Source of the DNA: an uncultured Clostridia bacterium
GTDB lineage: Bacteria; Bacillota; Clostridia; Christensenellales; UBA1242
Length of the DNA: 64,000 nucleotides
Direction: 5' to 3'
NCBI GenBank assembly: GCA_948434855.1
Contig: CAOJFR010000002.1
Location: 21,195 to 85,194, forward strand
The notes below the pieces were generated by a model that did no database searches, was not told where the DNA came from, and saw only the letters and a program-made list of their open reading frames with translations. Positions 12,347-59,234 of the stretch are shown here, one piece after another. The translations under genes and the position numbers were made by a program. Position 1 is the first letter of the stretch. Every line of letters starts with the position of its first letter.

Positions 12347-13048
12347 ATGGGAAAGATATTCATAGAAAAAAAAGAGATAAAATATAAGGTTCAAGAAACG
12401 GTTGAAGACACTTCTTTTGAGATAATCAACGGAAGCTATGAAGAGGTCACAAAGCTCAGCAGAAAATATAAGTCAGACATATATTCATACATAGACTTCA
12501 ATGTTCTTTTTGCCATGGAAAATCTTTTTGATGAATATTACACAAAAATCATACTTTTTAATGATGAGCAAAAAGTTGGATACAATTTGTTAAGTCTTCC
12601 AAGCAATCTAGACATATCTGTCAAAAGGGTTGCACCAAAAAACTTTTTGGTTCTTGGCATAAACAAAGACCAAGGGCAAAAAGGTCAAGCAAGTTTTTGC
12701 ACCTTAAAGTCAGATGGTACAGTCAATGAAGTCACAATAAACTTTAACTACATAAATCAATACAAGGTGATTGAAAAAAGATATTTCCTGCTTAATTTCA
12801 TAGAGGTTTTTGAAGATGGAAATGCAGAAGCTGGCGAGTCGTTAAAAAAGAGATATGTAAACAATATTGCGGTATATAGAAATGACGGCTCAATCTTAAC
12901 AGTTTTAGTTGAAGAAAATCTAAAGTCAAAAAGAGAGCTTGTCTGCGATATTAAGGACGATATTTTGTTAATCTATTATAAGGATGACGGCTCAGTTGTT
13001 CGCAAAATTCCAGTATCAGAAATAGTTTTAACCCATGAAACAAAATAA
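12347..13048 (+). CDS. Hypothetical protein (233 aa)
   Basis: Long ORF with ATG and weak RBS; no motif recognised. Confidence 0.6.
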   Translation: MGKIFIEKKEIKYKVQETVEDTSFEIINGSYEEVTKLSRKYKSDIYSYIDFNVLFAMENLFDEYYTKIILFNDEQKVGYNLLSLPSNLDISVKRVAPKNFLVLGINKDQGQKGQASFCTLKSDGTVNEVTINFNYINQYKVIEKRYFLLNFIEVFEDGNAEAGESLKKRYVNNIAVYRNDGSILTVLVEENLKSKRELVCDIKDDILLIYYKDDGSVVRKIPVSEIVLTHETK

Positions 13049-13172
13049 TAAAAAAATAAAAATAAATTAAAAAAATAATAATAAATGAAACTATTATTTA
13101 TTTGATTTATTTTTTTTATTATATTAAAATATTATTATTAAATTTAGTAAATGTAAATTAAAGGAAAATCCC

Positions 13173-14399
13173 ATGGAAATTGAAGAAACAGAAGAAGTCT
13201 TAGCTTCAGAAACTGCTGAAAAAGTCAGTGAAGAGCAAGCGGTCACAGAGCAAGCAGAAAGCTTAAATGAAGAAGCTTTAATTAATAATGAAGAAGTTTC
13301 TTTGTCTGAAGAAATTAAAGTTTCACAAAATTTAGAAGAAGAAAATAGTGAAAATAATTCAGAGGCTGAAGAAAGTGCAGAAGATGAAGAAATAGAGTTC
13401 ACAAGAATAGTTGGTCTAGATGTTGCAAATTCCACATTAAAAATTTGGACAGACGAGCTTAACTTAAAATATGTAAACACGATTCGTGAAATAAATGATG
13501 CGGGACTGGTATATTCTTTCCGCACAGATTATCAGATGTATGTTTATGGCAAACAAGTTTATGAAGTTGGCTTAGTGTCAGCCACAGGTTCTGGTGGCAG
13601 AGGCACCGCAAGATATGGTTCAGAGCAATATAAAACAGAAGCGTTAATAGGCATTGCATCATGCTTAAAAGAAATAGAAAATCTTTCAGAAAACGAGGTT
13701 CTCAGGGTTGTGACAGGCGTGCCAAGCAACCTTGCAAGAAATCAAAAGATTATCGGAGCAATCAAACAAATGCTTCTTGGCAATCATGAAATAAAGTCAG
13801 TAACATGGGATAGCGTCAAGCCAATAAAATTTAAGATTGCAGAAGTCATTGTTGTGCCACAACCGCTCGGCACCATGTATGATTATGTATATGATAAAGA
13901 GGCAGATGCTTTAAATGAAAAACTATTAGATCAAAGGGCAATAGTAATAGACATTGGCTGGGGAACAACAGACATTGCGATTCTAGAAACTGCCAGAGTG
14001 CGATCAACTTTCAGTTTCGACATTGGCACATCAGATTATATTTCAGATTTGCAAGAAGAAGTCAACATGGTCATGCCAGAAGCGAGCATATTTTCACTTT
14101 CAGCGCATGAGTTAGATTTGTGTTTGCTAGATTCCCCAGTTGTAGAAACTCCGTTTGGAGAGTTTGATTTGTCGTCTTATTCAGAAAAGCACAAAAAAAA
14201 TCAAGCCAAAAGAGTTTATCAAGAGGTCATGGGTCTGGGGTTAGAGTTCAATAAATTCTATAAAATCATATTAACAGGTGGCGGAGCGCTATTATATGAA
14301 GAGTATCTCCGTGAATTATTTAATGATCCAAGGCTCATAATTCAAGAGAACGCAGTCATGGCAAATTGCCGAGGTTTTTGGCTGCTTGGCAATTATTAA
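13173..14399 (+). CDS. ParM/StbA-family actin-like ATPase with ~75-aa acidic N-terminal extension
   Basis: Actin-fold motifs GLDVANSTLK (phosphate 1), VVPQPLG, VIDIGWGTTDI (phosphate 2), ILTGGGA (adenosine); residues 1-75 are E/S-rich low complexity. Confidence 0.8.
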   Translation: MEIEETEEVLASETAEKVSEEQAVTEQAESLNEEALINNEEVSLSEEIKVSQNLEEENSENNSEAEESAEDEEIEFTRIVGLDVANSTLKIWTDELNLKYVNTIREINDAGLVYSFRTDYQMYVYGKQVYEVGLVSATGSGGRGTARYGSEQYKTEALIGIASCLKEIENLSENEVLRVVTGVPSNLARNQKIIGAIKQMLLGNHEIKSVTWDSVKPIKFKIAEVIVVPQPLGTMYDYVYDKEADALNEKLLDQRAIVIDIGWGTTDIAILETARVRSTFSFDIGTSDYISDLQEEVNMVMPEASIFSLSAHELDLCLLDSPVVETPFGEFDLSSYSEKHKKNQAKRVYQEVMGLGLEFNKFYKIILTGGGALLYEEYLRELFNDPRLIIQENAVMANCRGFWLLGNY

Positions 14400-33798: not shown

Positions 33799-35007
33799 AT
33801 GGCAAAAGCTAAATTTGAATCTAAAAAACCACACGTTAACATTGGTACAATCGGCCACGTTGACCACGGTAAAACAACTTTAACAGCTGCAATCACAATG
33901 GTCCAAACACAAAAATTCGGTGGAGAATCAAAAGATTACAGCCAAATTGACTCAGCTCCAGAAGAAAGAGCTAGAGGAATCACAATCAACACTGCACACG
34001 TTGAATATGAAACAGAAAACAGACACTACGCACACGTAGACTGCCCAGGACACGCTGACTATGTTAAAAACATGATCACCGGTGCTGCTCAGATGGACGG
34101 TGCAATCCTTGTTTGTGCTGCAACAGACGGTGTTATGCCTCAAACAAGAGAGCATATCCTTCTTGCACGTCAAGTAGGTGTTCCAAAAATCGTTGTATTC
34201 ATGAATAAACTTGATCAACTTGGTGGCGACACAGAACTTGCTGACCTTGTTGAAATGGAAATCAGAGAACTTCTTTCAAAATACGAATATGATGGAGACA
34301 ACACTCCAATCGTTCGTGGTTCAGCATTCCTTGCACTTGAAGCTGCAAAAGCTGGAAAATATGATTCAGATGATTGCAAATGCATCTCAGAACTTATGGA
34401 TGCAGTTGATGCTTGGATCCCAACTCCAGATAGAGCAACAGACCAACCATTCCTTATGCCAATTGAAGACGTATTCACAATCACTGGTCGTGGAACCGTT
34501 GTTACTGGTAGAGTTGAAAGAGGTGTGTTAAAATCAGGTGAAACTGTTGAAATCGTTGGTCTTGAAGACAAGCCAAAATCATCAGTAGTTACTGGTATTG
34601 AAATGTTCAGAAAAACTCTTGATGAAGCTATCGCTGGTTACAACGTTGGTGTTCTTCTTAGAGGTATTGACAGAACAGACGTTCAAAGAGGACAAATCCT
34701 TTCTAAACCAGGAACAATCCACCCACACACAGAGTTTGAAGCTCAAGTATACGTTTTAACAAAAGAAGAAGGTGGCCGTCATACAGCATTCTTCAACAAC
34801 TATCGTCCACAATTCTATTTCAGAACAACTGACGTTACTGGTTCAATCGCTCTTCCAGAGGGAACAGAAATGGTAATGCCTGGTGACCACACAAAGATGA
34901 CAGTTCAACTTATCTCTCCAGTAGCTATCGAAGAAGGTCTTCGTTTCGCTATCCGTGAAGGTGGCAGAACAGTAGGTTCTGGTGTAGTTTCAAAAATTAT
35001 CAAATAG
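33799..35007 (+). CDS. tuf: Elongation factor Tu
   Basis: 402 aa; [22 protein letters not shown] motifs. Confidence 0.97.
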
Positions 35008-35136
35008 TTTTTAGAGCAAAAATTACGCAACCTAATGCGAAATAATAAAAAATTCTAAACAGTCATTATCGCAAGATAACTCCTGCTTAGAATTTTTTTT
35101 ATTTCTTTTATCTTATGCAATTTTTGCTCTAAAAAC
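35007..35136. repeat. 18-bp perfect inverted repeat enclosing the first tuf terminator
   Basis: GTTTTTAGAGCAAAAATT at 35007-35024; exact reverse complement at 35119-35136. Confidence 0.9.
35052..35100 (+). terminator. tuf terminator 1 carrying a 24-nt conserved core hairpin
   Basis: Outer stem ATTCTAA..TTAGAAT, then T8; core ACAGTCATTATCGCAAGATAACTC (35059-35082) with TTATC-GCAA-GATAA hairpin. Confidence 0.8.
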
Positions 35137-35166
35137 ATAATAAGTATTATGCAGAGTTTCAAAAAA

Positions 35167-35212
35167 GCCAAGACAGTCATTATCGCAAGATAACTCGTGT
35201 CTTGGTTTTTTC
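35167..35212 (+). terminator. Second terminator carrying the same 24-nt core
   Basis: Outer stem CCAAGACA/TGTCTTGG, then T6; identical core at 35173-35196. Confidence 0.8.
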
Positions 35213-35337
35213 TTGTGCCTCGTTTCTTGTTCAAATTTAGGCTCAAAAATGATTTAACTTTTTTTCTTAACTCAAATGTTTCTGTCATGTTTTCAATCAC
35301 ATTTTTGCTAAAAATGAAAACGAGTTTTATAGCAACT

Positions 35338-35447
35338 TGTCATAAAAATGTTATAAAGATGTTATAAACTTGTTATAAAAATGTTATAAACTTGTTATAA
35401 AGTTGTTATAAACTTGTTATATTTTTGTTATAAAAGTGTTATATAAA
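35338..35447 (+). repeat. Ten tandem 11-bp repeats, core TGTTATAA
   Basis: Core starts at 35338 (TGTCATAA variant), 35349, 35360, 35371, 35382, 35393, 35404, 35415, 35426 and 35437, an exact 11-bp period. Confidence 0.95.
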
Positions 35448-35561
35448 AGCTCATTTTTGGCGAAGTTAAAAGAATATATTTGATAAAAATTTATTAAAAT
35501 TCATAACACTGAAGTATTTAAAAAATGAATTATGTTATGCTTGTTTTGGAGGAAATATTTT

Positions 35562-35783
35562 ATGACTTTAATTAACATAATTTCATATAACTTATTAATG
35601 TTATTAGCTATTAGAAATATAACAACTTTAGAATTAAGCAAGAAGACTAACATTAAAGAACAAATAATACTAAACTTAATAAACTGCAAGTATAAAAATA
35701 TTAGTTCATCATTAATCATAAAATTTGCCGATGCTTTAAATGTTAGTATAGATGCATTTATTGTTGGATATAAAGATAATTGA
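35562..35783 (+). CDS. XRE-family helix-turn-helix protein (73 aa)
   Basis: ATG 35562 after RBS GGAGG; IRNITTLELSKKTNIKEQIILNL...FADALNVSIDAF fits the Cro/C1-type HTH pattern; very AT-rich. Confidence 0.6.
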   Translation: MTLINIISYNLLMLLAIRNITTLELSKKTNIKEQIILNLINCKYKNISSSLIIKFADALNVSIDAFIVGYKDN

Positions 35784-35833
35784 AACTTATCTTATTTTTG
35801 CTAATAAAAAAATAAAAATAAAGAAAAGATATG

Positions 35834-36058
35834 CTAGTTTGGCGTATCTTTTTTATTTTCAATCTTAATATTAAACTCTTTTAAAAGTTCAAAATATTCA
35901 CCCCAGCGGTGCTGTCTGATTGGCATGGCAATGTTGCAGTCAAAATGCAAAACAAGGGCAGGGCAAATTTTGTTGTGATTTGCCACAATTTCAGCACTTA
36001 TGCAGTGCCCCGTTTTGATTAAGTTTTGTGCTTTTGCATGATAATTAAAATAGCTCAT
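35834..36058 (-). CDS. Hypothetical small protein (74 aa)
   Basis: ORF with ATG but no clear RBS; Cys/His-containing; no motif recognised. Confidence 0.4.
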   Translation of the reverse strand: MSYFNYHAKAQNLIKTGHCISAEIVANHNKICPALVLHFDCNIAMPIRQHRWGEYFELLKEFNIKIENKKDTPN

Positions 36059-36134: not shown

Positions 36135-36164
36135 TTGACTTATGTTTGCCAAAAATGTTATATT
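36135..36164 (+). promoter_or_regulatory. rpoB promoter
   Basis: TTGACT, 18-nt spacer, TGTTATATT (extended -10); ~200-nt leader containing hairpin CTGCAAA...TTTGCAG. Confidence 0.55.
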
Positions 36165-36370
36165 AATATAGTCTACCATAATTATTGTTAGGAGTATGAG
36201 CACTCGCAAAATAGTTATGGTTTTATAAGTCAAGAAATGTAGATACTCTGCAAACTTTCGTCCTTTATTTGCAGTGTATAGAATCGACTATTTTTTTGGC
36301 TTTTTGCTACCATTTTTGCAGAAAAACACAATAAAAGTGACTCTTTAATAATTTTCTTTTGGAGGACTAC

Positions 36371-47967: not shown

Positions 47968-50900
47968 ATGAGAAAAAAAGTTGCAATTAAAAGAAGTTCA
48001 AATAATTCTGAAATGACTAAAAAAAAGAAAATATTTTTAGTTTCTGTTGCAGTGGTTTTGCTTATTGCGGTAACACTTTCAGTGGTGCTTCCAATAGCAC
48101 TAAAAAAACCAAAAGATGTACCATTTAAAATTCCGGCACTTGCTCTTCCAATTGAAGAGCAATATGCGCTGCACAAATTTAAGTTAAACGAGCTGGACAA
48201 CACGGTAACAACCATTCGTGCAGACACAATGAATGTTACAAAAAGGGGCGTGAAAAGAGAGCTTGGCACAAAGGTTTTTGATGATAGCTATAAATTAACC
48301 TATGGCACAGATAGCATTTCAATTGACTTTATGGGTCATTATCCAAGCCCTAGTCATGGCTTTAGTGGAAACTCTGCTGACTATTTAGAAGAAGCAAAAA
48401 AAATGTTTTCATCAGATTCAGATGCTATTGCACTTCAAAAATATAGTTTTTTCTATAAATATATGCTTATGTCACAAGGCTATAATGAAGTGTTTGATTT
48501 GCAAAAATTATCACAAAGCTTGGTTGATGGTTCAAAAGAAGAGTATGCAAAAAATCTTTATAAACACCCAGCAGCAGATGCTCAATATGGCGAAGTTTTG
48601 GGAGAAAATAATGCCGTTGTTAAAGAGATAACTCTAGACACAATATATCGTTCGCTTCATGCAACAGGACTATATATGCCAGCTGGCGAAGTTGTTACTG
48701 TTAAGGTGGAAGGTTTAAAAGAGGGCGAACATATCTCTATGGTCATTGGCAGACAAAACTCTTTGGCTTGGAGGGGTGAAGCTGCTTCTCAGGGGACAAA
48801 CACAACAGGCAAAGATAACTTTTTCTTTAATGCCGACATTATTACCGCTAAGGGCGGATTTAGCGATGCAAATAAATTTAGTTATTCAGAAACAGGTGAT
48901 GTTATTGGACACAAATTTATTCAAAGTCAGTGGGGCAGACAAAATGGCAGAATGCCATGGCTAACAGCAGAGTTCACATTTAATCAAAATGGAACTTATT
49001 ATATTGGCACACCTTATGGTGGAATAATGCACATTGGCATGGGCAACACTTATTCAAAAGTAAAAACAACCATAAGTGGTGCAGTTGAAACACCTCACTA
49101 TATTTTGGGCGTAACAACTCCAGATTATTTTGAAACATATCTTAAGGATGCACCTGGCGTTGTTGGTGTTATGGATACAGAAAATGGTCAGCTTATTGGA
49201 TTAACAGGCGAAGCAGGAACAGAACTTTATATGCGTCAAATAAAAAAAGAAGATGTTCAAAAGCTTGCAATGCTTTGGCATTCATTCTTTGCAGTAAACG
49301 AGTCGTTTACTGGCGGAACATATAACAGAGGCAACATTGTTATGTTTGACTGGCACGTTCCGGCTGGTGCAGCGGTTGCACTTGGTGGATATACCTATGC
49401 TTGTCCAACTAGCTGGTTTAATAATGCAATGAACTATAGAGGATTGCTAACAGCTGGTCAGTGGGGAATTTTGCATGAAGTTGGTCACAGCCATGGTGCA
49501 GCATATGGTTCAATTTGGGGCTTTGGTACCGCAAGAGAAGGCGAAGTTAGAAACAACGCTCTTACACTTTTAAGTTACATTTTGTTCTGCGATGTTGGAA
49601 CAACAATCAGAATGGGTGGTGGAGCAGAACATGGTGGTTATGCAAATCCATATTCAACACTTTCTGAAACGCTAAAATTTCCAAGTCAAGTTCACAATGA
49701 CTTTGATGATGGCACCTATGGCTATTTTCAGTGTTTGGGGATGTATTCAAACATAATGCACTCATTTGGTGCAGAAAAATATTATGAGCTTTTATACACC
49801 TATAAAAATAATCCAAACTTTGTTACAGTAAACACTGCGGGACTCAATGAAACTGATAGAAATCGCAAACTTGCTCTTGCAAAACGTGCAGACTTTGCCT
49901 ATAGATGCTCAACCGTTTTTGGCATGGATTTTAGAAAATATTTTAACACTTTCTATGCCGCAAATATTGACAATAGCATGTTCACAAAAGAGCAACTTAG
50001 TGAAATGAACAAGCTTCCAAAATATGAGCCAATTTCATGTTTTTATGCTGGTGGAATAGACGGCGTTAAAACTTCTGGCGATTATGTTGTTGCATATGGC
50101 GATGATATTGTTTTTGACTTATTGGAAAAAACAATAAGTTCACTTGACAAAGATGGTAAAAAGGGTTTTGAGATTTTATCAGGGGCAAAGGCAACTCATG
50201 GAAAAATTAAAGAACTAGAAAATGGCAAAATTGTCTATTCATTTAATCCGAAATATTTTGGAAATTGTGATGAAATCAAGTTTAAAGTTAAATTAAGTGA
50301 TGGTGTTGTTCATGAGTTTACAATTTATTTAAGAATAAATTATAACAGCACAAAACTTTCAACTTATTCTGAAATAGAGCCAATTTCAGGAAATTATTGG
50401 GATGCTGTTGATGAAATTATTAATACAAAAACACCAACAATTTCTTCAAATCCATATTCTTATATACCAACCTATAAAACAGCAAAAGGCTGGGAAATTA
50501 AGGTTTCAGAGTTTTATTGGAAAGCTCCACGCACAGGCGAAGTAAATTTCAGTTTCAAACTTGACGATGGTTTACGATTCTATTTTGGAGAAAATTTTAA
50601 CTCTTTAGAAGATCAAGGTTATTATAGCAGTTATTCAAGCAGTTGGGTTAAACATAGTAAAGCCTTTAAGGTTGAGGCAGGAAAATATTATGCTATAAAG
50701 CTTGTTAATGTTAATAAGGGTGGAAATGGATCTGCAGCAATTGGCTATAACTATTCAGGCGAAAACACTCAAAACATTGCAATTGCAGATGTCTTTAATC
50801 CAAATTATCCTCATGGAGAATATCACGAAGATTATAATCCTAAGAAAACAAACATAGAAACTTTTGTTTTTGAGCCATCATATTTGGTATCAAAAAAAGA

Positions 50901-54618: not shown

Positions 54619-55116
54619 TTAAACTAACTCTTCAAAAGCATAAAAAATTTTATGTTTATCAATATAAGAGGTGTTTTCAAGCTTTTTAAATCCATGCTTA
54701 ATGAATAGGTTAATTGATGGAATATTGTTCTTAAAAATTATTACGCGTAGAATTTCAAAATTATTTTTCTTGGCAAAATCATAAACAAATTCTAAAGCTT
54801 TTTTGTCATAACCATGTCTTTGGAACTCTGGGGCAATTGCCAATCTGCTAATATACAAAAAATTTTTATTTTTAGACCAATTGATAACTTGATAATCAGG
54901 ATCATCAAGAGTTGTAAGAACAAAGCATCCAACTAGTCTATTATCATCTTTAATAAAAAACATTTCGCCGTTTTTTATGTCACTTTTTAACTCACAAAGA
55001 GGGTAAGAACCATTCTAAAAAATTCTAACAATATTATTATTTGGGTCGTTTAAAACTTTTTTATATAACTTTTTAACATTAGGATAATCCTTAGCATTTG
55101 CTTTTGTAATCTCCAT
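54619..55116 (-). pseudogene. GNAT N-acetyltransferase interrupted by one in-frame TAG
   Basis: The frame is continuous from ATG 55116 (MEITKANAKDYPNV...) to stop 54619, except for TAG at 55017-55015 (IVRIF*NGSYPL); the distal part has a GNAT core (RLAIAPEFQRHGYDKKALEF). Confidence 0.75.
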
Positions 55117-55348
55117 AAAAAACCTCAAATTTTAATAAGAACATTATATAACAAAATTAAAATGATGTATACAAAAATTTAAAAGTTCATAATTAAAAGC
55201 CAACTGAAATTATGAATGGCACGATTGAACTTAACTAAATATTAGAAATACATAACTGCTAAAAAGATAAATGAGAACTATTTAGTAAATTTTATAAAAT
55301 ATCATTTTATAAAGTTTTAAAAGTTAATATGTCTTTGTATGGTTTTAT

Positions 55349-55560
55349 AATGGTGGCGGTTCGAAATGCAAATTCGAACCTGTCCATAAAAATTTGAACC
55401 CCAACATTATCCATCAGCATTCTCAACAATATGGATCGAATACTCAATTCGAACAAGGGCGTAGGGAACCACAATTCGAACCTTCAAAGAAATTTTCCAA
55501 CCACATAGAATTTATAGACTACATTCCAACCCACGAGGTAATAACATACCGCCACCTATT
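55349..55560. other. Structured non-coding block (~210 nt) closed by a 9+3-bp helix; strand unknown
   Basis: GGTGGCGGT (55352-55360) pairs with ACCGCCACC (55548-55556), plus 3 more pairs past a 1-nt bulge; 8-bp hairpin GGTTCGAA-ATGCAAA-TTCGAACC; AATTCGAAC occurs three times (55371, 55446, 55473). Confidence 0.45.
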
Positions 55561-55612
55561 CGCTTATGGTTTTTATGTGGAGTAAAAATTTTAAAATATT
55601 ACTAATATTAAG

Positions 55613-55641
55613 TTGACAAGTATATTAAACATGATTATTAT
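55613..55641 (+). promoter_or_regulatory. Near-consensus sigma-A promoter of a short non-coding transcript
   Basis: TTGACA, 17-nt spacer, TATTAT. Confidence 0.65.
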
Positions 55642-55647
55642 TAAAGT

Positions 55648-55781
55648 ATGAAGTTAGCACTCAACTGATTTGTTTGCTAAAATAAACAATAAAGAGGTCA
55701 ATATATCGGGATAATTAAGTTTATATAGATTTGTATAAATAAAAAGAACAACACCGAGGTCGCCTCGGTGTTGTTTGTTTT
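55648..55781 (+). ncRNA. Candidate small RNA (~130 nt) delimited by promoter and a 13-bp terminator
   Basis: Terminator AACAACACCGAGG-TCG-CCTCGGTGTTGTT then TGTTTT (55747-55781); the only ORF is a 6-codon one (MKLALN). Confidence 0.5.
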
Positions 55782-55835
55782 AACCTAAAAATGAATTCTT
55801 TAGGCCTGAGAAACTTTGAGAATTCAAATGGGAGG

Positions 55836-55895
55836 TTGATAATGAAATGATCATTATATGCTAATATGTTAACACATTTGTCATTTCATTGTCAA
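55836..55895. repeat. 15-bp inverted repeat (14/15 match) spaced by 30 nt, upstream of the 305-aa gene
   Basis: TTGATAATGAAATGA (55836-55850) versus TCATTTCATTGTCAA (55881-55895); the single mismatch would be a G-U pair in plus-strand RNA. Confidence 0.8.
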
Positions 55896-56090
55896 CAATA
55901 TTTCTACAATTTTTATTAGCATAATTTGCAACTCTAATATAAATTGTTAAATATTTGAGGCAATGATTTTTTGTTTTTAGGTTTACTTCAAATTTTATTA
56001 AAGGAGAAGTAATATGAAAAAAGAGAATACAGAATAACAGAATAAAAACTACAAAAAGCTACAATTAAAATAAAAGTTAAGGAGACAAAA

Positions 56091-57008
56091 ATGGAAAAAG
56101 TAAAAGATTTACTAAATGTGCTAAAAAAATATGGAAACTATTCTTTATATTCAGCAAAGACAAATGTAAAGAACAAAAAAATTTATAAATACGATCAAGA
56201 GGTTAATAAAAAATTAGTTCTTGATAGGAAACTAGAAGTATTGGAACAGTTAAGCGAGTGTCCTATTTATGAATATGATGTTTATAGTATAGATAAAGAT
56301 ATTATTCAACAAATTAGCGTTGATAAAATAAATTGGTTTGACATTCAGAAATCAATTAACGAGTTAGACCCACAAAACTTAAATGAAATAAATCCTACTA
56401 TTATAAATAGATTAACTGATATGGACATATTGTTATTGGATTTAGAAGATGGCAGACAGGCATATATCATTAACAAACACATAACTATTGGTTCCGCTTT
56501 TAGAAATAAAACAATGTTTTCTAAAAAAACGTTACTTGCGGAAGACAATATTTATGCATTTAACGATTATCCAGATGTAGTAATTTTGGATAACAATTGC
56601 TATATCTTTAACGAAAATAAGTTTAATTCGATGTTTAATTTTAGAGAAAAAATAGATAAAAAGGTAGAAGGGTCAAAAGAGATAATAACGTCATGGCAAT
56701 TTATACAAGATGGCGAGATGTTTTATCAATATTGTTTAAAAAATTACAATACAAAAAGAGCAATAATAAAAGTCCTTGACAAAGATGGCGTTGATCTATT
56801 GACAACTTCTTCGCCTTCAACAATAAAGAAAAAATTGTTAAGCCATGATGAATTGGTTGATAAGTTAACTTTTGATCCGAATACAAGCAAACTATTAGTT
56901 AATGATGAAATTTGTGATTTAATATTAAAGATATTAACTAATAAGATAGGTCAGGACTTATTTACGGATAAGTTATTTGGTATGGGAGATGGCGATGAAG
57001 TTAATTAA
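56091..57008 (+). CDS. Hypothetical soluble protein (305 aa); candidate sensor/partner of a membrane defence pair (KwaB/DUF4868-like?)
   Basis: ATG after RBS AAGGAGA; no TM segments; its end overlaps the next gene by 14 nt. The family assignment is only a size, context and pattern impression. Confidence 0.8.
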   Translation: MEKVKDLLNVLKKYGNYSLYSAKTNVKNKKIYKYDQEVNKKLVLDRKLEVLEQLSECPIYEYDVYSIDKDIIQQISVDKINWFDIQKSINELDPQNLNEINPTIINRLTDMDILLLDLEDGRQAYIINKHITIGSAFRNKTMFSKKTLLAEDNIYAFNDYPDVVILDNNCYIFNENKFNSMFNFREKIDKKVEGSKEIITSWQFIQDGEMFYQYCLKNYNTKRAIIKVLDKDGVDLLTTSSPSTIKKKLLSHDELVDKLTFDPNTSKLLVNDEICDLILKILTNKIGQDLFTDKLFGMGDGDEVN

Positions 57009-57582
57009 GAAAATATTGTTATACTTAACAGCATTCAATCCTATGGTATTTTTGCTATTGTTATCGTCAATAATTCAAATTCAATTTTCTGACGAATTAT
57101 CTTGGAATAAGCAGAATATAATAGTGATTTCATCTTTTTTAATTTTTCTAATTATAACATTTATAATAGCAGTGATTTTCGTAAAAAAACCTTTAAGAAA
57201 CGATTCTTGCAAAGTGGTGTTAATAGAAGTTAAAAATCTAACAGATAGTTATTTCTTAGGTTATTTTGCTTTATTTGTCATGTTAGACTTGTCTTTTGAT
57301 TTAATGAGCTTGGAGAGTCTAATAATTCCGGCCATCTTGATTATAATAATTGGTGTAGTGTATATATCAAATGATTTATACTATATAAACCCTTTATTTA
57401 ATCTTTTTGGTTATAAATTTTTTGATATTAAATATCAAAAAAACAATGTAAATAAACAATATTCGGGAAGAATTTTTAGCAAAAATAACTTAGAAAAATA
57501 TATAGATGAAGAAATAGAAATGGATTATAGCATATATAATTTTAGCAAGCAAAGGAATGAGCTAAATAAAATTAAAAAATAA
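56995..57582 (+). CDS. Four-TM membrane protein (195 aa); candidate effector/anchor (KwaA-like?)
   Basis: ATG 56995 after GGGAGA. Four hydrophobic helices (LLYLTAFNPMVFLLLLSSII, IIVISSFLIFLIITFIIAVIFV, YFLGYFALFVMLDLSF, LIIPAILIIIIGVVYI), then a ~70-aa soluble tail. Confidence 0.8.
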   Translation: MKLIKKILLYLTAFNPMVFLLLLSSIIQIQFSDELSWNKQNIIVISSFLIFLIITFIIAVIFVKKPLRNDSCKVVLIEVKNLTDSYFLGYFALFVMLDLSFDLMSLESLIIPAILIIIIGVVYISNDLYYINPLFNLFGYKFFDIKYQKNNVNKQYSGRIFSKNNLEKYIDEEIEMDYSIYNFSKQRNELNKIKK

Positions 57583-57592
57583 AAACAAACAG

Positions 57593-57620
57593 AAATTGCC
57601 GTTATAGGCAATTTTTATTT
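57593..57620 (+). terminator. Rho-independent terminator
   Basis: AAATTGCC-GTTATA-GGCAATTT then TTATTT. Confidence 0.75.
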
Positions 57621-57673
57621 GTAAATTGTTGACTTTATTGCCGATATTGGCTATTCTTTTAATAGAATAAAGA

Positions 57674-58573
57674 ATGAGGTTTACGTTAATGAGATTTTTG
57701 ACAGCTAGCGAAATTGCTAAAAAGTGGAATATAAGTGAAAGGTCTGTTCGTAATTATTGTCGGCAAGGAAGGGTAAAAGGCGCTGAACTTAAAGGCAAAA
57801 CATGGATAATTCCTGAGGATGCTGAAAAACCAGAAAGGGTGGAACGTAAAGAGTTTAGTGATAATCCGCTTCTTAATAAATTGAAAGAAGAAAAAGATAT
57901 GGGGCTCAAAGGTGGAATATTTGAAAAAACAATTGTTGCTTTAACATATAACTCCAATCATATAGAAGGAAGCAAATTAACAGAAGACCAAACAAGAATG
58001 ATATATCAAGTACAAGAAATTTATACTGGTGATCAAACAATTTCAGCAAATGATATACTAGAAACGATAAATCATTTTAAATGTGTAGATTTTATAATAG
58101 ATACGGCACTATGTAATTTGAGTGAAAGTTATATAAAGCGTTTACATTTTGAGCTTAAATATGGAACTTTTCATAGTCTTGCAATCAATGTTGGATTATA
58201 TAAAAATTTTCCAAATGAAGTTGGCGGAAATGAAACCTGTCCACCTGAAAAAGTTTCCGAAGAAATCAAAAAACTTTTAGATAACTATAATGCAAAACAG
58301 ACTAAAACTATTAATGACATAATTGAATTTCATAAAGAATTTGAAACAATCCATCCATTTCAAGATGGCAACGGAAGAGTAGGGCGGTTAATTATGTTTA
58401 AAGAATGTCTTGCCAACAATATAGTTCCATTCATAATAGAGGACGAATTTAAGCTCTACTACTATCGTGGCCTCAAAGAATGGAACACTGAGCGTGGCTA
58501 TCTAACTGATACTTGCCTCGCTGCCCAGGACAAATATAAAAAATGGCTAGAGTATTTTAAGATTAATTATTGA
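57674..58573 (+). CDS. Fic-family protein with N-terminal HTH and internal inhibitory-helix motif
   Basis: Fic motif HPFQDGNGRVGR (about 58352-58387); SNHIEG matches the (S/T)xxxE(G/N) inhibitory motif; N-terminal LTASEIAKKWNISERSVRNYCRQG HTH. Start is 57674 or 57689. Confidence 0.88.
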   Translation: MRFTLMRFLTASEIAKKWNISERSVRNYCRQGRVKGAELKGKTWIIPEDAEKPERVERKEFSDNPLLNKLKEEKDMGLKGGIFEKTIVALTYNSNHIEGSKLTEDQTRMIYQVQEIYTGDQTISANDILETINHFKCVDFIIDTALCNLSESYIKRLHFELKYGTFHSLAINVGLYKNFPNEVGGNETCPPEKVSEEIKKLLDNYNAKQTKTINDIIEFHKEFETIHPFQDGNGRVGRLIMFKECLANNIVPFIIEDEFKLYYYRGLKEWNTERGYLTDTCLAAQDKYKKWLEYFKINY

Positions 58574-58684
58574 TAAATGCAATAAAATCTAATATAAGCT
58601 ATAGCAGAAATATGACGATTTAATGGTTTGTCACAAATTGATTAAAATTGTGTTAACATGAACTTATTTAGGGAGAAAAAATAG

Positions 58685-58855
58685 ATGCATAATGAATTAT
58701 ATACAACAGAATATGATGTTGAGAAAATGTTTATAGAGGTTATTACTACAAATTGGTATAAATATAATAATTTATCAAGTTATGAAGAGCTTCTTGAAAA
58801 TTTTAGAAATAAGTTAAATCTTTTAAATAAAGATATCCTCAATGCAAAACCATAA
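58685..58855 (+). pseudogene. Truncated N-terminal fragment of a type I restriction enzyme R subunit (HsdR)-like gene
   Basis: 56 codons with RBS GGGAGA; TEYDVEKMFIEVITTNWYKYNNLSSYEELLENFRNKLNLLN resembles the HsdR N-terminal pattern; stops far short of a helicase core. Confidence 0.45.
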
Positions 58856-59051
58856 AGAAGAATTGAAACAATTTCGTAACGAAAATAAAGAAATGATAAG
58901 AAGATTAGAAACTATAAGAGATAAAGTATATTCGCATTTTGATTTAGATTATTATAAAGATTGCGATAAAATATCAATGCAATTTATTGAGAAATGTATT
59001 TACTTTGTGGCCGAAGTGTTAGGAATTTTAGATAAAATTTTATTTATATAA
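58842..59051 (+). pseudogene. Short C-terminal fragment with an Rx5H (HEPN-like) motif
   Basis: 69-codon ORF starting inside the end of the HsdR fragment in another frame; IRDKVYSHFD fits Rx4-6H; no RBS. Confidence 0.3.
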
Positions 59052-59145: not shown

Positions 59146-59234
59146 TGGCGGAGAGAGCGGGATTCGAACCCGCGCTACATTGCTGTACTACACCCTTAGC
59201 AGGGGCGCCTCTTCGGCCTCTTGAGTATCTCTCC
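59146..59234 (-). tRNA. tRNA-Ser (anticodon GCU), CCA encoded
   Basis: Acceptor GGAGAGA/TCTCTCC, then G and CCA; anticodon loop CTGCTAA; long variable arm; T-arm GCGGG-TTCGAAT-CCCGC. Confidence 0.95.

Follow-up and report, generated by a model that had tools for sequence, protein, structure and literature searches.

A species-specific, strain-variable array of phased 11-bp direct repeats between tuf and rpoB of an uncultured Clostridia bacterium, with a predicted response-regulator half-site architecture

A 64,000-nucleotide stretch of contig CAOJFR010000002.1 from an uncultured Clostridia bacterium (hereafter the window) carries ten contiguous 11-bp direct repeats at 35338–35447, in perfect register and in the non-coding spacer between tuf and rpoB. 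The repeat is real and statistically unambiguous. It is confined to one species, in which it is fixed and internally variable, and it is tied to neither of the two helix-turn-helix (HTH) genes that occur beside it in different strains. Judged from the geometry and sequence of its units, the array is most likely a constrained protein-docking array of the response-regulator half-site type, presenting its sites on one face of the DNA and bordering a strain-variable cassette of XRE-type genes, while a functionless variable number tandem repeat (VNTR) is its main and serious rival. In either case it is kin to known kinds of elements, namely direct repeats of the PHO-box and WalR type and VNTRs of promoter regions, and it is a species-specific curiosity that adds no new category to them.

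The array and its conserved core

The preliminary description of this DNA had reported ten phased 11-bp repeats with starts at 35338, 35349 and so on up to 35437, and these are confirmed by the sequence, by Tandem Repeats Finder and by a repeat search that returned nine consecutive spacings, each of exactly 11. Tandem Repeats Finder describes the array with a period of 11, 9.7 copies, 0 indels and a score of 123 (144 when read as a 33-bp repeat), the highest within the 64 kb, with 81–85% matches among copies. The array can be presented as follows:

35338–35447, + strand: ten head-to-tail 11-bp units, each built of a 7-bp core TGTYATA and a 4-bp variable, A/T-biased spacer

From the first to the tenth, the units read TGTCATAAAAA, TGTTATAAAGA, TGTTATAAACT, TGTTATAAAAA, TGTTATAAACT, TGTTATAAAGT, TGTTATAAACT, TGTTATATTTT, TGTTATAAAAG and TGTTATATAAA. 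The sequence TGTTATAAA is found exactly in seven of these ten units and in one further place in the 64 kb. A transcript of the array would have no structure beyond that of shuffled controls (z −0.19), no Rfam family matches it, and stop codons interrupt every reading frame.

In regard to variation within the unit, the core was analyzed in a set of 40 units of 11 distinct types, taken from four alleles. Core positions 1–3 and 5–7 are invariant in all 40 units and position 4 is T or C, spacer positions 8–9 hold A or T only, and positions 10–11 are almost free, with an information content of 0.2–0.65 bit. At least eight substitution events are required among the unit types, and only one of them falls within the seven core positions (binomial P = 0.0046). 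Furthermore, the three terminal units compared between the two haplotypes of the locus (described below) show only spacer differences, 2 in 33 positions, whereas the adjoining 53 aligned positions hold 14 differences (Fisher P = 0.022). The window array contains eight unit types among its ten units and is therefore no fresh expansion; arrays of TGTTATAAA found elsewhere are almost all perfect, with 1–3 types. The core is thus constrained, and this pattern of substitutions suggests that it is probably under selection.

Variation between strains and related species

Loci of the same species were recovered from metagenome samples by exact-protein look-ups. Their RpoB proteins are 99.9–100% identical and their tuf genes 99.6–99.7% identical at the DNA level, and in one of them (L228) rpoB DNA is 100% identical to the window over 3 kb. 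A search of metagenomic relatives had been proposed in the preliminary description, and it gave a divided answer, since the array was seen in 17 of the 17 independent same-species samples with contigs reaching the site and was absent from related species. Two of the latter, with EF-Tu more than 90% identical, have different genes after tuf and no array, while in a sister species, whose orf74 (77% identical) adjoins rpoB, no HTH gene is found in the 83 bp at hand.

Within the species, the number and the order of units change from strain to strain. Ten units are present in the window and in loci L206 and L212, thirteen in L207, where several cores read TGTCATA, and other orders in L208, L228 and L232–240; for further alleles, lower bounds of 10 and 7 units were obtained. 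The three right-terminal units are constant in the alleles save for two spacer changes, and the third unit from the right end is TGTTATATT(C/T)T in every allele seen. Short-read assemblies are frequently broken inside the array. With its head-to-tail copies and its copy-number polymorphism between strains, the array belongs to the VNTRs, or minisatellites.

The gene order around the array is rpsL-rpsG-fusA-tuf, two terminator hairpins, the array, the HTH gene of the window (HTH-A), a terminator, the convergent gene orf74, the rpoB promoter and rpoB-rpoC, with tuf (EF-Tu) at 33799–35007 and the rpoB start at 36359/36371. The interval 35–36 kb has 25% GC, compared to ~35% for the whole window. 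Features of the spacer, besides the array itself, are:

35053–35092, + strand: first tuf terminator hairpin, an inner GCAA tetraloop stem inside a conserved hairpin of ~130 nt (35007–35136)
35168–35205, + strand: a further copy of this hairpin, whose outer stem carries compensatory changes; it borders the array region on the left
35301–35315, strand not applicable: perfect 15-bp palindrome ATTTTTGCTAAAAAT, 22 bp left of the array
35326–35334, − strand: inverted degenerate unit TGCTATAAA, a minus-strand match with 1 mismatch that abuts the left end of the array
35415–35423, + strand: unit 8 of the array, TGTTATATT, the only unit with T at position −7 of an extended −10 element; the same 9-mer lies in the presumed rpoB promoter
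35448–35499, + strand: array-proximal segment, homologous between the two cassette haplotypes at 74% identity
35500–35517, + strand: TTCATAACACTGAAGTAT, promoter/operator block of the XRE cassette, conserved in front of either HTH allele and in front of the HTH-B homologues in other species
35562–35783, + strand: HTH-A, a 73-aa XRE/Cro-C1-type HTH protein (Pfam HTH_26, E 1.3e-8) encoded at ~22% GC
35822–35854, + strand: hairpin terminator between HTH-A and orf74; right boundary of the strain-variable cassette
35834–36058, − strand: orf74, a conserved small protein with 58 homologues

The Pfam match of HTH-A bears out the XRE-type assignment that had been made for the 73-aa frame from its translation. 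Together with unit 1, the inverted unit TGCTATAAA forms an 8/10 palindrome, and an identical copy of the ATTTTTGCTAAAAAT palindrome is located at 57472–57486. The array-proximal segment also holds TTGATA (35480) and TATATT (35475), a possible rightward promoter.

On the right side of the array, the cassette occurs as two haplotypes. That of the window consists of HTH-A alone, while the second, present in L228 and in at least nine more samples, combines an opposite-strand 76-aa gene with HTH-B, a 79-aa protein of the HTH_26 family with no BLASTP similarity to HTH-A. Strains of the second haplotype, including some with an identical RpoB protein, still carry the array. Homology between the haplotypes comprises the array and ~52 bp at 74%, is then lost except for the 18-bp TTCATAACACTGAAGTAT block, and resumes at the orf74 terminator (cassette DNA compared: window 35448–35822, L228 81–905). 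Seen along the locus, identity between strains is 99.6% in tuf, 94–100% in the left flank and 74% in the right-proximal segment, then disappears, and is 100% in rpoB.

In addition, a prophage-like element of more than 4.8 kb is inserted at ~36130 in L207 (L207 8376 onward), separating orf74 from the rpoB promoter in an otherwise intact locus, which makes the site just upstream of rpoBC an integration point. The genes of this insertion include a small ribbon-helix-helix (RHH)-like gene, DUF6273, YqaJ exonuclease, DUF1351, RecT and RusA. Two other organisms have homologues of HTH-B (53–59% identity) within small XRE cassettes of a similar kind, of which one is likewise located just downstream of tuf; both loci are devoid of the array. 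The motif ATTCA-N7-GAAGTAT is invariant in all four upstream regions of the HTH-B/HTH-A type.

Resemblance to response-regulator half-sites

A 7-bp core followed by a 4-bp A/T-biased spacer, a strictly direct orientation and an 11-bp period are the reasons for reading the units as half-sites of a winged-helix response regulator of the OmpR/PhoB family, a reading that was missed in the preliminary description. WalR/VicR (YycF) recognizes the consensus TGTWAH-N5-TGTWAH, for which a refined form, TGTWAHA-N4-TGTWAHA, was described in S. mutans, and the footprinted high-affinity VicR sites include TGTTAT-N5-TGTTAT of wapA; the VicR site has itself been noted to resemble the PhoB box CTGTCATA (PMC4168254). 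The array shares with these sites the direct hexamers or heptamers at 11-bp spacing. All adjacent pairs among units 2–10 are exact consensus sites, giving eight overlapping exact matches to TGTWAH-N5-TGTWAH, which are the only ones in the window, against 1.27 expected. The A that the refined form adds at position 7 is present in 40 of 40 units. For comparison, the exact WalR consensus occurs at only 29 intergenic sites in the C. difficile genome. WalRK is reported in all Firmicutes, and the host is a spore-forming member of this group, as its GerA/GerB/GerC operon and S-box riboswitch indicate.

The PHO boxes of PhoB and PhoP offer a second comparison. They consist of 11-nt direct units with seven conserved and four variable positions, binding spreads cooperatively from core units, with reports of up to 6–8 tandem units cited, and shortening of the unit to 10 nt leads to a strong loss of binding (PMC2275107). 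The information profile of the array follows the same unit architecture, with tandem direct 11-nt units, the first seven positions conserved and the rest A/T-rich; the E. coli unit is CTGTCATA(A/T)A(T/A). The core TGTTATA is an exact match to the WalR/VicR consensus and the TGTCATA variant is the Pho-box core; TGTCATAAA units match the core of E. coli, whereas most units of the array read TGTTATA. In B. subtilis the Pho motif is TT(A/T/C)ACA, and the opposite strand of the array units gives five of its six positions.

Based on this half-site geometry and sequence, we tentatively propose, as a possibility, that the array is a docking array for a regulator of the OmpR/PhoB type. Each helical turn would take up one protein, with the proteins arranged head-to-tail on the same face of the DNA, and ~10–13 regulator monomers could polymerise cooperatively over 110–143 bp. 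Bound regulator would cover the sole usable extended −10 element (35415) and the entry to the downstream strain-variable XRE cassette, and the array could thus form an on/off gate or a roadblock that lies past the tuf terminators and ahead of the cassette. It would inevitably also be a high-capacity sink for the bound regulator. In evolutionary terms, the proposal amounts to a species-specific, strain-variable minisatellite that may have been retained as a multi-site docking platform.

Several observations weigh against this proposal. Known WalR/VicR sites are one, occasionally two, dimer sites in the promoters of cell-wall genes, while here 10–13 contiguous candidate half-sites lie between tuf and small XRE genes within one species. 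The neighbours (tuf, the XRE genes, orf74 and rpoB) do not include the cell-envelope or peptidoglycan-hydrolase genes expected beside a WalR site, no pst/pho or other Pho-regulon gene lies nearby, and no response-regulator gene is encoded in the 64-kb window. The reported maximum for PHO boxes is 6–8 units, and we know of no natural WalR or PhoP site with 10–13 tandem half-sites. Furthermore, the motif is low in information, as ~9% of random 11-mers of the same composition, when repeated, give TGTWAH in every unit and ~3% give TGTWAHA, and several regulator consensuses were compared post hoc. The motif also overlaps the extended −10 pattern, and the WalR match may therefore be a by-product of it. 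Concerted evolution could account for part of the homogeneity of the core. Finally, the interior of the array is reshuffled between strains, as a neutral VNTR predicts, and the related species do without the array.

A further variant of the proposal, in which the array is a high-capacity chromosomal decoy, or sponge, that titrates WalR or another essential regulator of the OmpR family, and in which the copy number of the strain (10–13) tunes the free regulator, seems highly improbable. It would draw on the location of the array between the two most heavily transcribed operons and on an analogy with datA, the titration locus of DnaA, here built from a VNTR.

Other explanations and significance

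The explanation that competes most seriously with a docking array, and which we regard as rather unlikely without setting it aside, is a neutral or contingency VNTR. In such a scenario, an 11-bp promoter-like seed TTGYTATAAAA, akin to ATTTTTGCTnnAAAA, was amplified by slippage or unequal crossing-over and has no specific binder, and the array marks, and perhaps promotes, the recombination boundary of the hypervariable cassette. Repeats of this kind in promoters are well known, for example the 7-bp contingency repeats upstream of the H. influenzae hmw genes, and the array is similar to them as an intergenic tandem repeat upstream of a gene and with a copy number variable between strains. The changes in unit number and order, the absence from related species, the breaks of short-read assemblies and the jump of divergence at the array, from 94–100% identity on its left to 74% on its right, are all in line with this explanation. 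Motifs related to ATTTTTGCTnnAAAA are also clustered in the same spacer, with seven of the 23 matches in the window (9.8 expected) located there, and one unit of the array is a single mismatch away from a motif of this type.

Related to this, 11-bp TGTTATA repeats arose independently in many unrelated genomes. A pattern scan with (TGTTATA-N4)x3 over viral and genome collections yielded more than 200 unrelated loci; among the matches listed, which include perfect minisatellites in giant-virus-like contigs, none encodes relatives of tuf, HTH, orf74 or rpoB of the window. Likewise, a metagenome scan with four units of TGTTATAAA gave 26 loci, almost all of them perfect repeats on giant-virus or eukaryote-like contigs, which look like recent expansions. 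Prevotellaceae metagenome-assembled genomes have 10–13 copies of an 11-bp TTGTTATACAG/A repeat (L164 6219–6325; L123 2474–2612), located in L164 just downstream of an operon with a histidine kinase, a LytTR regulator and a 72-aa gene. The matches of the pattern scan, with the Prevotellaceae arrays and the phage iterons described below among them, are only analogies, not homologues.

On the other hand, a neutral repeat does not readily explain why variation is so non-uniform along the unit, why fewer differences separate the old haplotypes in the terminal units than in the DNA next to them, why units matching at only 81–85% retain their core in 40 of 40 cases, or why the array is fixed in all 17 samples. 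Unlike the repeats of the hmw type, its 11-bp steps keep the helical phase and its diverged units have a constrained core.

The preliminary description also suggested that the neighbouring HTH protein uses the array as its operator or iteron set. Some small HTH proteins, such as P2 Cox and 186 Apl, do bind direct repeats in helical phase, and by analogy with these proteins the location of the array 115 bp from the HTH gene, its orientation toward it, an inverted TGTTATGAA copy in the conserved promoter block (35500–35508) and one TATAACAA within the HTH gene could be taken as supportive. XRE domains, in contrast, normally bind inverted repeats. The site and the regulator also do not co-occur across strains and species: the same array stands beside the cassette with the unrelated HTH-B, where moreover the 76-aa gene sits between the array and the HTH gene, and the HTH-B homologues of the two other organisms share ATTCA-N7-GAAGTAT but have no array. 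HTH-A is therefore disfavoured as the binder and an operator for it is improbable; the TTCATAACACTGAAGTAT block, with its ATTCA-N7-GAAGTAT motif, would be the likelier HTH operator.

As proposed earlier, each unit is indeed one mismatch from the extended −10 pattern TGnTATAAT, and the array could be seen as a stack of such elements binding sigma-A RNA polymerase (RNAP), that is, as a promoter island with multiple starts or a trap affecting the HTH gene and/or rpoBC. The resemblance is genuine, as TG at −15/−14 and A at −11 are present in all units and T at −12 in nine of ten. The sequences TGTTATATT and TGTTATAAT seem to be used by genuine promoters: the presumed rpoB promoter (TTGACT-18-TATATT with an upstream TG, 36135–36164) contains TGTTATATT, and TGTTATAAT is located upstream of the gene at 47968 and of the tRNA at 59149–59234. 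Unit 8, with TGTTATATT, is kept in all alleles. However, the mismatch falls on −7T, the most important position, where nine of ten units have A, and the variable position of the core (T or C, as in TGTCATA) falls on −12, which indicates that selection is not on −10 function. As the sole unit with T at −7, unit 8 is the only credible extended −10 element of the array and the only one to combine TG, −12T, −11A and −7T. The positions expected for a −35 element match at only three of six, by construction of the repeat, so no usable −35 accompanies the units, and a promoter scan reported no promoter within the array. A promoter stack is accordingly quite unlikely. In particular, a polymerase trap acting on rpoBC is unsupported, because a terminator and an opposite-strand gene lie within the ~690 bp that separate the array from rpoB's own promoter, and rpoB tolerates the insertion of more than 4.8 kb in L207.

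A relic of a plasmid or phage origin had been considered as well, and a relic centromere or a set of replication iterons from an integrated element would have known models. Plasmid R1 parC has 2 x 5 direct 11-bp iterons, is bound by ParR and is strongly curved (PMC2241845), and the array resembles it in its ten direct 11-bp repeats spaced at about one helical turn and in its predicted curvature; parC binds one dimer per repeat. Several phage contigs (L070 3482–3664; also L024, L049, L066 and L081) have two 11-bp TGTTATA(A/G)C arrays ~120 bp apart directly after a primase-helicase gene, which are probably origin iterons. The AT-rich, strain-variable region beside a phage integration point would also fit, although the AT-rich stretch that follows the array is not specific to origins. 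The orphan status of HTH-A adds to both sides. In a set of 5.8 billion proteins only HTH-A itself was found, with no homologue outside the species, and neither phage genomes nor IMG/VR hold relatives, which makes it essentially an orphan; its only distant match (35.6% identity) is a small HTH protein from the phage-like early region of an L. brevis plasmid, where no array is present.

Nevertheless, the array differs from parC, which is split 5+5 around the par promoter upstream of parM and the RHH gene parR, in being contiguous and beside an XRE HTH gene. No rep, primase, ParM/ParA/TubZ or RHH gene is adjacent to it in the window, the cumulative GC skew is monotonic, and the array is fixed while the neighbouring cassette is exchanged. 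The suggestion as a whole is doubtful. A chromosomal actin-like gene (ALP_N/MreB-like_C, 13173–14399, within the region 13038–14399) lies 22 kb away without a TGTTATA motif upstream. A ParM-like link between it and the array was rejected, as only low-complexity A/T tandem repeats precede the gene; it is followed by a 226-aa gene without a Pfam match.

A curved element with a structural role, such as an upstream activator, a supercoil apex or an insulator between two highly transcribed operons, and with no sequence-specific partner, has a similarly low probability. The predicted curvature of 38.5 degrees per 30 bp, compared to a window mean of 19.8, places the array in the top 0.7% of 110-bp windows, these values being approximate, as are the wedge parameters behind them, and the restriction of spacer positions 8–9 to A or T would suit such a role. 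The phased curvature that had been suggested is therefore present, yet it is not unique, as it is exceeded at several further places in the window; an A/T tract of at least 4 is found in only four of ten units, and the invariant TGT at positions 1–3 is left unexplained. Lastly, a by-eye comparison with the motifs of the DnaA box, Spo0A box, parS, LexA box and dif arm gave no match above 5/9 or 5/7 and led to their rejection, in agreement with the earlier remark that the motif does not fit the DnaA box.

Some further observations concern the surroundings of the array. The structure at the 3′ end of tuf (35007–35136 and 35161–35249) has a fold z-score of −9.9 and is kept in related species, with seven pairs showing double changes; no Rfam family corresponds to it. 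Members of the orf74 family are 60–90 aa long, with the 58 homologues at 49–99% identity in varied genomic contexts and one of them annotated as 'thermostable hemolysin delta-VPH', and neither a Pfam nor an NCBIfam model matches the family. The 5′ leader of rpoB (36165–36358) shares identical runs of up to 39 nt with the sister species (L217), which points to a regulatory leader that is conserved; Rfam holds no match for it, and a conserved 30-mer from it had 0 matches in a metagenome scan. In another part of the window, an AT-rich islet at 55000–59000 (27% GC), adjoined by the tRNA at 59149–59234, encodes a KwaB-like protein of the Kiwa defence system (56091–57008) and a Fic/HTH_17 protein (57674–58573), and is probably a small defence or mobile island.

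If the array is a docking array for a response regulator, it would be the longest natural run of half-sites of this type described, with 10–13 units compared to 2–8 for PhoP/PhoB, and the copy-number differences between strains would represent a natural dosage series for cooperative filament-like binding, roadblocking and titration of the regulator. If it is only a VNTR, it would be a useful marker for strain typing, and it would account for the breaks between tuf and rpoB in short-read assemblies of this species. Either way, the exchange of cassettes and the insertion of a prophage mark this locus as a hot spot of recombination and insertion directly upstream of rpoBC.

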